Part shown: in pieces, positions 18,865 through 26,820 of the stretch | Layout of the letters: each line of letters opens with the position of its first letter | Numbering within the stretch: the stretch's first letter is position 1 | Virus record (IMG/VR): IMGVR_UViG_3300029705_000074 | Origin: a virus | Length of the DNA stretch: 64,000 nt | Reading direction: 5' to 3' (one strand) | The notes under the pieces: generated by a model | Told to the model about the DNA's origin: nothing | Database searches by the model: none | The model's input: the letters and a program-made list of their open reading frames with translations, nothing else | Made by a program: the position numbers and the translations under genes

Positions 18865-19158
18865 TCACCACAGTATTTGAATAGGCTTACCCTCTGGTAT
18901 CTCGTATATCCCCATGTCTCTCAATACCTCTTCACCTATCCTATAATCCTCAAACACATTCCCTTTTACTCTACCAATGTTCTTCCCATTCGCGTCATAA
19001 ACCTCTTCCCATTTCTCGATATCTTCCATCAATATCCATTCATCACTCACATAAACATATACCTCTCCCTTATCTGATATTCCTACCATGCCATCTACCG
19101 GATTTTCATATGGATATCTTACAACTTTGAAATGAGTTTGCCGAATACTACTCTCCAT
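18865..19158 (-). CDS. hypothetical protein
   Basis: 97-aa ORF, stop TGA, ATG 2 nt after the upstream gene stop. Confidence 0.5.
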   Translation of the reverse strand: MESSIRQTHFKVVRYPYENPVDGMVGISDKGEVYVYVSDEWILMEDIEKWEEVYDANGKNIGRVKGNVFEDYRIGEEVLRDMGIYEIPEGKPIQILW

Positions 19159-19159
19159 T

Positions 19160-19480
19160 TCAAGTTCCCTCTGCCTGAGTTTCCTTCAACGCCTCATCAA
19201 ATAGCTAATATAACCCCTCTTTATCCATCTCACACCACCAATACTCATAAGCTTCGTATCCCTCATATTCAAATATTGTTCCATTGACCGCTTCCAGTAG
19301 AATTACATGTTCTAGCTTGGGAAACCAAGATATAAAAAGACTGCTAAGCAAAATGGGTAGCAACCCATCGGCTATTACATCTAAATCAAAACTAATTTCT
19401 CCATCTGAATATTTATCCCACGCACTTCTATACTATGCATATATCTCATAAAACCTATTCCATAGTGCTCTATCTATCAT
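19160..19480 (-). CDS. hypothetical protein (two in-frame TAG)
   Basis: ATG 19480 after TAAAGGAGAG; the frame is open through two TAG codons to TGA 19160-19162. Confidence 0.4.
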
Positions 19481-19494
19481 GTTTTGTCTCTCCT

Positions 19495-19905
19495 TTATTC
19501 CTATTCGGCAAGCTTAAAAATCTTGTCACCATTTCTTACATACCCGCCCTCTAAGTATTCTGGGTTCACAAATATCTGCTCCGCCACCTCTCGTAGAATA
19601 GACGGATATGTACTATCTTCTATTGTACTATCATGTACTATTGTATTATTTCTCTATGCTTTTTCAGACTAACTTGTCTGGTTTTCAGATAATGTTGTCG
19701 GTTTTTCAGACATTTCTGCCACTCCGATCGTCGGCTTTTCAGATTTTCCGCTTTCCGCAACAATCGGTTTTTCAGATTGAATCTGGTTTTCAGACAAAAT
19801 GCCTGTTGTCGGTTTTTCAGACAAAATTGTCTGAAATTCAGACTCCCCGGCCATCCGAGGATTTTCGTAGAATACTAAAATATTGCTACCCTCGCTCACT
19901 GGCAC
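19495..19905 (-). CDS. SEKPT-repeat protein (three in-frame TAG), low confidence
   Basis: Supplied ORF 19669-19905 continues through TAG 19669-19671 to TAA 19495-19497. The SEKPx repeats are the translation of the GGTTTTTCAGA DNA repeat, so coding status is uncertain. Confidence 0.3.
19655..19845. repeat. array of 8 direct repeats GG(T/C)TTTTCAGA(C/T), spaced 20-33 bp
   Basis: Copies at about 19659, 19680, 19700, 19733, 19766, 19785, 19811 and 19833, plus inverted partial copies (GTCTG). The array overlaps a low-confidence minus-strand ORF. Confidence 0.6.
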
Positions 19906-19920
19906 TAAATAGCCCAGTTC

Positions 19921-20169
19921 CTACATCTTCTTCTTTGCGCTCTGGTAAGCGTCTTTCTTCAAGCCCCAATCTGCCAAAACTTTTTGGCTTAACTCAAACT
20001 GAAATCCGTCTTGATTTTTATTGCAATACAACCAAAGTTTCAAAGACTCGCCCTTGAGATTACGCATAGCCTCTTGCAAGCTATCTAAATGCATCAATGC
20101 ATAAGTATTATTTTTATTAAAGGGTCTTCTAGGAGCTATCTTTACGATATACTGATTACTTGCTGACAT
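19921..20169 (-). CDS. hypothetical protein
   Basis: ATG after GGGGGTAGGA; 82 aa; stop TGA. Confidence 0.5.
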   Translation of the reverse strand: MSASNQYIVKIAPRRPFNKNNTYALMHLDSLQEAMRNLKGESLKLWLYCNKNQDGFQFELSQKVLADWGLKKDAYQSAKKKM

Positions 20170-20338
20170 AATCCTACCCCCCTAGAATTATATCCAAGTC
20201 TCTCTAAAACTTCTCTGTAACCTCAAAAATCCAGCAACTAAATTGCGGGAACTTGGGGTTTGGCATCGTAGAGATAGGTATATTTCCCTTCTCAACAAGC
20301 TATTCCATTACCTTAAGGGAGTAAATAATTTTGTTCAT
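20156..20338 (-). CDS. small hypothetical protein (60 aa, three in-frame TAG)
   Basis: ATG 20338 after GGAGG; open through TAGs to TAA 20156. Confidence 0.3.
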
Positions 20339-20354: not shown

Positions 20355-20498
20355 TTACTCCTAGGTCTTAATATATTCTTTCAGAGCCTTTCTAATAACC
20401 TAAGACATGGTTAAATCATGCTCTTGAGCAAACTGCTCCAACTCTTTCTTTTCTTCTTCGGTGAGTCTAACCGATACAGTAGAATACTCTTTAGCCAC
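20355..20498 (-). CDS. ribbon-helix-helix (CopG/Arc-like) protein, 47 aa with two in-frame TAG
   Basis: GTG after AGGAGG. Reading through TAG restores the RHH C-terminus VIRKALKEYI, ending at TAA. Confidence 0.45.
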
Positions 20499-20744
20499 GA
20501 ATATTCCTCCTTTCATTATAATATACAAAATGCGATAGATACTTTAACCTGCGTTGTCCTAAAAATTTTTATCATTTATAGATAAATAATACTACATTAC
20601 ATCTCTTATGTCAACCTGCGGACTGGGAATTTTATTGGCATTTATTTTCCCATCTCGCACCTAATAGCAACCTCTTTATTTTTATAAATATATATATTAT
20701 AATATAAATACAAGGTAAGAAAACACCACAAAACATGAAAGAGG

Positions 20745-20936
20745 GTGAACAAGATAGACCCCTACACCATAGTCCTCAAGGTGAACGGATTTTCCGGCGC
20801 CGCAGTTAATGATTTCCTTTGCCGACAACTTATGAGTGAGATTGGCAACGTGGATATCCTGACCTGGAGTGTATACAATGAAGATGATGAAGAAGTTTCT
20901 GACGAGGGTCCTCTCAACGACTATTCTCACTGCTAA
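20745..20936 (+). CDS. hypothetical protein (start uncertain)
   Basis: First ORF after the family-B promoter at about 20690. GTG start has a poor SD; a 24-aa ATG ORF at 20735 in another frame is the alternative. Confidence 0.3.
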   Translation: MNKIDPYTIVLKVNGFSGAAVNDFLCRQLMSEIGNVDILTWSVYNEDDEEVSDEGPLNDYSHC

Positions 20937-21661: not shown

Positions 21662-22543
21662 TATGCCTAAGAAAATAGATTTAACAGGTCAAACTTTTGG
21701 TCGCTTAACAGTCCTATATGAGCTACCAGAAAGAAAGAATGGGAAAGTGTAGTGGCACTGTAAATGTGAGTGTGGTAACGAAAAAGACGTGATATCTACA
21801 CAGCTTACTGGTGGGCGCACTTAGTCTTGTGGATGCCTACAAAAAGAAAGAACTTCAGAGGCTAACTCTAAAGGTATAGATTTAACAGGATAGACCTTTG
21901 GGCGTTTAACCGTATTGCATCGCAGTCCAAATAGTGCTAAATGGGTATGTTAGTGTGAATGCGGTAATAAAACAGAAGTAACGACCACCCACCTAAAAAC
22001 GGGCCACTCTAAATCTTGTGGTTGTTTATAGAAAGATAAAGCCTCGGAGACTCGTGGTATTAATCTAACCGGCAAGCGGTTTGGTATGTTAACCGTATAG
22101 GGATTAAACCTAGAAAAATCAACTACTCAAGTAAAATATTGGAATTGTTTGTGCGATTGCGGCAATTCTACAGTTGTGCCTACAGGCGCATTGCGCTCTG
22201 GCTCAACACAAACTTGTGGTTGCAAGAAAATGTCTCATGGAGAGATTAAAATAGCACAACTATTAGATGAGTATAATATACCATATGAAAGAGAAAAAAT
22301 CTTTAACTCGTGCATTAACCCAACTACAAATCGCCCTTTACGCTTTGACTTTTATGTAAACAATCAGTATTTAATCGAGTTTGATGGTAAGCAACATTTT
22401 GAACAAACGAACTGGGAACCACTAAGCGATGTGCAATATAGGGATGAATTGAAAAACAAGTGGTGCAAGGAAAATAATATACCCCTAATTAGGATACCCT
22501 ATACAAAACTAAATGTTCTTGACATCAACGATCTTCTACCTTA
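21662..22543 (+). CDS. homing-endonuclease-like protein: three zinc-finger repeats plus C-terminal DUF559/Vsr-like nuclease domain; six in-frame TAG
   Basis: ATG after GGAGGGAA. Repeat unit LTGxxFGRLTV...WxCxCxCGN...SCGC occurs three times. All six internal stops are TAG and several align with Q in sister repeats; C-terminus RPLRFDFYV...IEFDGKQHF. Confidence 0.55.
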
Positions 22544-22738
22544 ATCAGAAGCCCTCTGTATCTTAATACAGAGGGCTTCTTTTCTTTTGCAAAAAATTAA
22601 AAATTATGATATTATGTATATAGAAAGCAAGAGGATAGGCAACTTCTACCCTCACGATATTCGTGTGGGACGATTTTACGGAAGCGAGGCCATTTCTTCC
22701 GAAACCACCCATTTATTTTTAGAAAGGGAGTATTTAGG

Positions 22739-26100: not shown

Positions 26101-26820
26101 ATGAGTAAATGGTCAGAACTACTACCCCAAGAGGCTCTCAATCTCAGCGTGCAACTCGCTAACCATGCTCAAGAGGAGCGAGATAAGGGAAAAGTCCTAT
26201 TCCCTCCGCAGGATTAGATTTTCAGAGCATTGAACTTAACCAAGCCAGAAGATGTAAAAGTATGTCTGGTTGGACAAGACCCCTATCATACACCCGGCTA
26301 GGCCAACGGACTCGCATTCTCGGTCGCCGCAGGAAATAAACTTCAGCCCTCTCTGGTAAACATCTTCAAAGAGTTAGAGGATGACTTAGGCATCCCGAAA
26401 CCCGCCAATGGAGATTTGACCAAGTGGGCTGAAAATGGCGTCCTGTTGCTGAATACTAGCTTGACCGTATATGAGCATCAAGCAAACAGTTGCGTTGGCT
26501 GGGGATGGAATAAATTTACAAAAGCAGTATTACAGGCTGCTACAAAGCTACCTCAACCTGTTGTTTTCTTGCTGTGGGGTGCAAACGCGCAGGATTTGTT
26601 GAAAGATTTGATTTCATGCGCGGCAGTTTATGAAGATGGCGGACACGTTGTTAAGGAAAGCCTAATCAATAAGGCTTACGTTCTATCTTCACACCCAAGT
26701 CCCTTTAGCGCAACAAAACAGTGTAGAGGCACTCCTGCTTTCAGAGGAAGCAAACCTTTCTCTACGGCAAATAATCTATTAGTAAGTATGGGTGGTGAAG
26801 CTGTTGATTGGAGATTATAA
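26101..26820 (+). CDS. ung: uracil-DNA glycosylase (family 1) with two in-frame TAG codons
   Basis: PPQD, GQDPYH, LLLNTSLTV and HPSPFSA motifs. TAG 26296-26298 sits where E. coli UDG has Gln (GPGQAHG). The supplied ORF 26416-26820 is only the post-TAG fragment. Confidence 0.7.

Follow-up and report, generated by a model that had tools for sequence, protein, structure and literature searches.

The locus described here is an operon of five genes on the minus strand, close to 20 kb in a 64-kb stretch of phage DNA (the window, by which we mean the whole of the sequence that was analysed). The third gene of the operon (19495-20169, minus strand) encodes a putative replication initiator. It has 224 codons, four of which are in-frame TAG codons read as glutamine, it ends in a TAA stop, and it contains an array of short repeats. 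In a preliminary description the array was assigned to a possible ORF at 19495-19905. The true gene extends to 20169 and is continuous only with readthrough of the four TAGs (19921-19923, 19669-19671, 19654-19656 and 19501-19503, i.e. codons 83, 167, 172 and 223), which is why only part of it had been caught. With TAG as a sense codon in the window, the array sits in one 224-codon gene. The pair of ORFs given by the standard code (82 and 78 aa) was rejected: in relatives, sense codons carry the frame through position 83, and a product of 82 aa would miss the wing of the winged helix described below.

The operon opens with a gene for a ribbon-helix-helix (RHH; CopG/Arc-like) protein of 57 aa (20355-20528, minus strand; two in-frame TAGs), which matches Pfam DUF6290 (1e-9) and RHH_1 (1.3e-6) as well as a transcriptional repressor PHROG (1.9e-8). 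The same gene lies upstream in the relatives L005, L006, L007 and L009, and its product is probably the operon's regulator. The promoter-like site upstream of this gene (TTGACA-17-TATTAT; 20586-20614, minus strand) is an 11/12 consensus match only. Between the RHH and initiator genes is a 60-aa ORF (20156-20338, minus strand) with three in-frame TAGs and no Pfam or PHROG match, and a 57-aa ORF occupies the equivalent position in L005, L006 and L009. The two ORFs downstream of the initiator gene, 19160-19480 (106 aa) and 18865-19158 (97 aa), both on the minus strand, had no Pfam or PHROG match either, and neither a helicase nor a helicase-loader signature was found in them. No replisome family was matched by any of the window ORFs that were scanned. 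Around 20 kb, GC skew tracks gene orientation; it is uninformative and was not used as evidence.

The initiator protein is laid out as a winged-helix N-terminal DNA-binding domain (aa 1-105; 19855-20169, minus strand), a disordered repeat linker and a small C-terminal domain (approximately aa 183-224, YPSILREVAEQIFVNPEYLEGGYVRNGDKIFKL; 19495-19620, minus strand), and the array lies in the DNA that codes for the linker. An AlphaFold2 model was made of P0001, which is 93% identical to the window protein. It has a confident winged helix at residues 1-105, disorder at 107-176, which is the repeat zone, and a small C-terminal domain composed of a helix and beta strands (pLDDT ~78) that is conserved in close relatives. 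The candidate recognition helix spans approximately aa 72-85 (KKDAYQSAKKKM), and the nearest folds of the model include replication initiators. By analogy with the C-terminal domain of lambda O, the C-terminal domain is a putative partner-recruiting module.

We found 95 homologues, mostly full length (200-250 aa), that share the N-terminal domain of ~100 aa, a variable number of SEKP-like units and a (Q/E)RN-N/T/I-rich segment. They were recovered from metagenomes of gut and rumen and from Clostridia MAGs, among them those of Oscillospiraceae and Acutalibacteraceae. Many of the distant long-form relatives end in ...LGF. The window protein itself matches the PHROG 'replication initiation O-like' (E=2e-4) and a second initiator PHROG (5e-4). 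Among 48 homologues, 34 match phrog_428 (best E-value 2e-7), 33 phrog_678 (2.3e-8), 20 phrog_345 (1.2e-7) and 13 phrog_186 (5e-8), and these matches are weak to moderate, to families whose names ('O-like' for phrog_678 and phrog_345, 'DnaD-like' for phrog_186) are annotations. A Pfam scan of the 224-aa protein gave no match even at E<=1, and tblastn and megablast searches of 50,697 GenBank phages returned no match to the protein or to positions 17-23 kb of the window. A profile search of PDB sequences yielded only low-complexity matches to chemoreceptors, which were dismissed.

Amber codons and the phage context

On the evidence of aligned glutamines, the window is that of a TAG-to-Gln recoded phage (code 15). 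In the uracil-DNA glycosylase (UDG) gene (26101-26820, plus strand), TAG takes the place of the conserved glutamine of GQDPYH..GQA (GQDPYH..G[TAG]A). Internal repeats of the protein encoded at 21663-22544 (plus strand) likewise pair TAG with CAR glutamine codons, as in DLTGQTFGRLTV / DLTG[TAG]TFGRLTV and CGCLQK / CGCL[TAG]K. A suppressor tRNA gene of 91 nt with the anticodon CTA is located at 46095-46185 (plus strand). It lies directly 3' of a tRNA-Ser(TGA) gene and has a ~16-nt extra arm in the variable region, together with a Gln-like D-arm and a G73 discriminator, as in the two tRNA-Gln genes of the window. The long extra arm hints at a serine or other identity for TAG, which was rejected in favour of glutamine on the alignment evidence. 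The suppressor belongs to a plus-strand region (30052-47806) of 31 tRNA genes and a tmRNA (35919-36257; tag peptide DNSYFENHLAA), interspersed with GIY-YIG/HNH homing-endonuclease-like genes.

In-frame TAGs occur in the genes for UDG and TerL, in homing-endonuclease-like genes and throughout the initiator operon, and most long plus-strand genes are without them; TAG-bearing examples include 33344-34120 and 46590-47225 (both plus strand). Standard-code ORF calling splits such genes. Nowhere in the window are amber codons denser than in the initiator operon (11 TAGs in ~450 codons). In the initiator family, 47 of 50 non-redundant members have at least one in-frame TAG. The invariant Gln6 is encoded by TAG in 21 of the 50 (in the window, codon 6 at 20152-20154 is CAA/CAG), and the residue preceding a conserved RN is TAG in 20 of 46 members. 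TAG accounts for 17% of glutamine codons in the N-terminal domains of the family, compared with 4.7% in the long genes of the window.

The TerL gene of the window (441-2186, minus strand) encodes a protein that is 43-49% identical to the TerL of Firmicute siphoviruses of 134-142 kb (Enterococcus EF1, VRE9_4 and H1, and Geobacillus E3) and of Phass-1. Auxiliary genes on the plus strand encode a microbial-type PARG (1e-19; 5367-6128) and a FolD-like methylene-THF dehydrogenase/cyclohydrolase (6e-40; 6125-6901), and a third product (56952-58235) has a weak RNA-ligase match (1.7e-5, below the Pfam cut-off). Also on the plus strand are genes for a 501-aa protein with DUF2828 and DUF7788 (47859-49364) and for an 800-aa protein with Major Vault Protein domains (49740-52142; MVP_shoulder 9e-20, Vault_3 3e-8), a vault-like pair that is unusual in a phage. 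A flotillin/SPFH protein is encoded at 62409-63932. An open frame of 1476 codons on the minus strand (47739-52169) runs antisense to the DUF2828/DUF7788 and vault-like genes, both of which have Pfam support, where the GC content is the highest of the window (~52%); it is probably a by-product of codon bias, not a gene.

A repeat array selected as DNA

The eight-copy array reported at 19655-19845 in the preliminary description is present there, and its unit, its spacing and the extent of its ORF needed correction. The 11-mer GGTTTTTCAGA, on which that description was based, occurs in three exact copies (starts 19700, 19766 and 19811) and in two copies with one mismatch (19658 and 19733). The other three copies that had been counted have T4 rather than T5 (19679-19689 and 19784-19794) or are palindromic (19832-19842). 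Elsewhere in the 64 kb there is a single further match with one mismatch, and six matches were reached in none of 100 shuffles. Codon-by-codon reading of the units in the window and its relatives yields a better description of the repeat, as a 13-bp dyad-symmetric unit, TCKG-N5-CMGA, with a mostly A/T centre. The GTCTG sequences that had been listed as inverted partial copies exist, and are really the second half-site of each dyad unit.

The pattern TCKG-N5-CMGA has 12 matches in the window, where ~3.5 are expected, and eight of them fall within the 166 bp from 19677 to 19842 (starts 19677, 19698, 19715, 19731, 19764, 19782, 19809 and 19830). With a ninth, degenerate unit at its end (ATGCTTTTTCAGA, 19656-19668), the array spans 19656-19842. 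On the coding strand, representative units are TCTGAAAAACCGA, which encodes SEKP, TCTGAAAACCAGA (SENQ) and TCTGAATTTCAGA (SEFQ). The unit at 19715-19727 (TCTGCCACTCCGA) sits between regular units; because it lies out of frame, with a GC-rich centre, its status is uncertain, and it could be either a degenerate unit or a match by chance. Spacing had been put at 20-33 bp. For the eight units first counted, the start-to-start distances are 21, 21, 33, 33, 18, 27 and 21 bp, so the actual range is 18-33 bp. All of these distances are multiples of 3, and over this range the helical phasing of the units is only partial. No second array was seen in a TCKGN5CMGA scan of the 64 kb. An Rfam scan of 17-23 kb had no match at the array, so no known RNA family accounts for it. 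A terminator-like match at 19829-19843 is merely the palindromic iteron.

Directly past the last iteron is an AT-rich block (19609-19653) of 24% GC, compared with 39% for the gene, which carries short tandem repeats of the ATAGTACA type. This is not peculiar to the window: in 9 of 9 genomes examined, the 45 nt past the last unit have 18-27% GC, compared with 33-40% for the genes. The block is a candidate DNA-unwinding element. Ahead of it is a conserved junction at 19648-19659, (GCA/CCG) TAG AGA AAT, in which one of the amber codons of the gene is embedded.

Whether the repeat serves as a coding sequence or at the DNA level had been left undecided in the preliminary description. Both readings are true because the array lies within the initiator's own gene, where it is translated and would also be selected as DNA. 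The comparison proposed there was whether related genomes keep the amino-acid repeat and lose the nucleotide repeat; the opposite was found, the nucleotide repeat being kept. In the SE[KN]P units of eight genomes, serine is always TCT or TCG, glutamate is GAA in 35 of 35 cases and proline is CCG in 33 of 35. In the window at large, CCG is the rarest proline codon (11%) and AAA is the minor lysine codon (31%). Identical residues in the N-terminal domain of the same genes share their codon in only 39-51% of cases. Synonymous sites of the relatives are otherwise saturated, and the codons of the units are almost invariant.

The converse is seen in the peptide, which varies over conserved half-sites. 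TCKG and CMGA are kept under SEKPT, SENQT, SEFQT, SEIQT, SVFQI, SGFQI, SGFPT, SGIQK and qDFQK. When the linker of the window was resampled with synonymous codons in 20,000 trials, the number of sites averaged 1.1 and never exceeded 5, compared with the 8 observed (P<5e-5). Across 38 relatives, the strict motif occurs 12.3 times per kb of linker and 0.37 times per kb of flanks. The number of units ranges from 6 to 9 in close relatives, where it changes by whole in-frame units, and from 1 to 11 in most relatives.

Short-form relatives, which consist of the winged helix only, have the units in non-coding DNA just past the stop codon. In L081, 12 copies of TCTGAAAAACCGA with ~32-bp spacing lie 3' of the stop codon of a ~120-aa homologue, in a region where all three frames contain stops. 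In L015 and L016, 3-4 units lie out of frame, and L097, L087 and L092 have 8-13 non-coding copies of TCGC-N5-GCGA or GCGC-N5-GCGC. At the non-coding arrays of L015, L016, L081 and L092, the junction recurs as ATAGAGAAAT or in a closely similar form (ATAGAGTAAT in L081), and an AT-rich tract follows non-coding arrays as well, often with a GC-rich hairpin after it. The array regions of the short forms are at 2875-3400 in L081, 2850-3230 in L087, 2790-3450 in L092 and 2810-3130 in L097. A very AT-rich tract is present past the iterons in L087 and L097, and ATAGAG(A/T)AAT and a GC-rich hairpin in L081 and L092. The short-form proteins have ~100-120 aa, mostly with a conserved C-terminus (...DF or ...YIF). 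Judged by codon use, peptide variation, resampling and the non-coding arrays, the repeat is a DNA element that happens to be translated.

The sequence of the candidate recognition helix varies together with that of the half-site. Helices with ...DAY[Q/Y][S/T/K]... are paired with TCKG..CAGA, those with ...YYR... with TCGC..GCGA, those with ...YRR... with GCGC..GCGC, and those with ...YYA... with TCGG..CCGA. This co-variation is correlative, and is as expected if the winged helix reads its own iterons; it predicts that residues 76-77 contact half-site positions 3-4 (for example, in the site TCTGAAAAACAGA). The pairs of helix and half-site would amount to a small natural specificity code for a winged-helix initiator.

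A candidate replication origin and its alternatives

The earlier suggestion that the repeats are replication-origin iterons or a binding-site array is supported by the conservation of the nucleotide repeat, by the relation of the family to initiator PHROGs and by the AT-rich block past the array. Of the readings considered, an origin is the best supported, because the gene family matches initiator PHROGs and because an AT-rich block follows the array. We consider it likely that the array provides the iterons of a theta-type origin of phage replication located inside its own initiator gene. The reading as an origin draws on the iterons, the AT-rich block, the position in linker-coding DNA and the variation in number by whole units, which together are the anatomy of the lambda and SPP1 origins.

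We propose that the origin would function as follows. Translation of the initiator gene, with TAG read as glutamine, would give a protein composed of winged helix, disordered linker and C-terminal domain. Dimers of the N-terminal domain could then bind the eight or nine dyad-symmetric 13-bp sites in the linker-coding DNA. The resulting nucleoprotein complex, aided by the A-tracts, would destabilise the 24% GC block at 19609-19653, and the C-terminal domain would recruit a helicase or a helicase loader. From this arrangement we infer that the protein binds the sites, that the DNA melts, that a helicase is recruited and that the origin fires.

An alternative is that the array serves as an operator, or in handcuffing or copy control, with the winged-helix or RHH protein bound there to repress or roadblock transcription of the operon, and that no origin is involved. 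Iteron-binding initiators often autoregulate, the repressor-like RHH gene that opens the operon is conserved, and the short-form relatives have a DNA-binding domain only. However, the array lies inside or 3' of the gene, away from the promoter, and the promoter region (20530-20870) contains 0 TCKGN5CMGA sites. An operator also needs neither the AT-rich block nor the junction motif, which are conserved and always past the array, and the family matches replication initiators, not repressors. We therefore regard an operator function in place of an origin as unlikely.

It is very improbable that the array is instead the partition centromere (parC- or tubC-like) of a plasmid-prophage, with the winged-helix or RHH protein as adaptor. 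In partition systems of types II and III, the centromere consists of arrayed short repeats to which RHH or winged-helix proteins bind, and TubR is among the weak Foldseek matches of the model (rank 19, E=0.9). However, no ParA, ParM or TubZ NTPase was found in the six neighbouring ORFs scanned or in the neighbourhoods of the relatives, an AT-rich block would be unexpected at a centromere, and the PHROG matches are to initiators.

A pac site within a small-terminase gene, as in P22 and SPP1, is an even less credible identity for the array. Such sites may sit in the TerS gene with repeated boxes, TerS has an N-terminal HTH, and the small relatives L005 and L009 have the initiator gene 1.5-3.5 kb upstream of TerL. 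In the window, however, the TerL gene (441-2186) is 17 kb away, and the structural model has a disordered linker only, with no oligomerisation or helical core. L009 has a separate TerS-like HTH_Tnp_1_2 gene near TerL, and no terminase PHROG was matched.

Least credible of all is selection purely for a low-complexity SEKPT peptide linker, in which case recent duplication would have left the DNA repeat as a by-product. The repeat is in frame, its spacings are all multiples of 3 and disorder is predicted for the linker, but in relatives the same units are found out of frame and in non-coding DNA, half-sites are kept while the peptide varies, codon identity in the units is far above that of the conserved domain, and synonymous resampling does not reproduce the number of sites (P<5e-5).

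If the array is an origin, the dense amber codons of the initiator operon suggest a testable link between code switching and the timing of replication. Regulation of late and lytic genes by recoding is an existing idea. We raise as a tentative possibility, and one we think doubtful, that in this recoded lineage the initiation of replication is gated by the genetic-code switch. If so, full-length initiator would be made and the origin would fire only once the phage suppressor tRNA is expressed. Ribosomes that stop earlier could yield DNA-binding fragments that lack the C-terminal domain and occupy the iterons as inhibitors. Such an amber gate would stretch the idea of regulation by recoding to the onset of DNA replication.

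Comparison with known origins and phages

That an origin can lie within the gene for its initiator is a textbook principle. New here are a family that has no Pfam match and is split by standard gene callers, a 4-N5-4 iteron with a specificity code, and the TAG-recoded setting.

One parallel is found in phage lambda and in lambdoid and Stx phages. The middle part of lambda gene O contains ori (iterons and an AT-rich tract), additional iterons lengthen the O protein, and synonymous recoding of the units has been carried out in phage P27 (PMC7466680). The lambda iteron has the design TCCCTC-AAAAC-GAGGGA, and the units of the window (TCTG-AAAAC-CAGA or TCTG-AAAAA-CCGA) are likewise dyads with an A-tract centre. 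In both systems the iterons are in the middle of the initiator gene, in the coding sequence of a linker that joins a DNA-binding N-terminal domain to a C-terminal one, an AT-rich tract lies past them, and their number varies by in-frame indels of whole units (PMC7466680). The window differs in having units of 13 bp instead of 18-19 bp, 8-9 units instead of 4-6, no P-like gene downstream, a Clostridia-type Firmicute as host and four amber codons that encode glutamine. Alignment of the family profile with lambda O by hhalign gave a probability of 0.1%, which is not significant; together with the lack of a Pfam match, this leaves membership in the lambda O family unsupported. From the arrangement of its parts, the window system would work like lambda O and ori, while homology to O is not established.

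A comparable arrangement in a Firmicute phage is that of SPP1, in which oriL lies within gene 38, encoding the replisome organizer G38P (PMC6316719). [quoted passage not shown] DnaD-like and replication-initiation PHROGs are matched by members of the window's initiator family. Unlike the 64-kb window, in which no second array was seen, SPP1 has a second origin, oriR. It also has the adjoining helicase-loader and helicase genes 39 and 40, whereas the two downstream ORFs of the window match neither family.

Iteron origins located 3' of rep, as in PICI/SaPI-type elements and many iteron plasmids, resemble the short-form relatives L081, L087, L092 and L097, in which a non-coding array is followed by an AT-rich tract. 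The array of the window differs from these in being coding, and its winged-helix protein has no helicase or primase domain.

TAG-to-Gln recoded gut phages (code 15), such as the phAss-1 group, are also close to the window. The initiator and its region have no match in GenBank phages, and an origin goes unmentioned in the published account of phAss-1, whose text hardly uses the words 'origin' and 'repeats' (PMC10607447). The group and the window share a tRNA array, a CTA suppressor tRNA and TAG at conserved glutamine positions, with TerL proteins that are 43% identical between the window and Phass-1 (PMC10607447), and relatives of the initiator occur on contigs of ~140-150 kb, a further likeness to this group. 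The system described here provides a testable candidate origin and initiator for a large group of TAG-recoded phages and prophage-like elements, all uncultured, whose hosts are Clostridia of the gut and rumen (Oscillospiraceae and Acutalibacteraceae).
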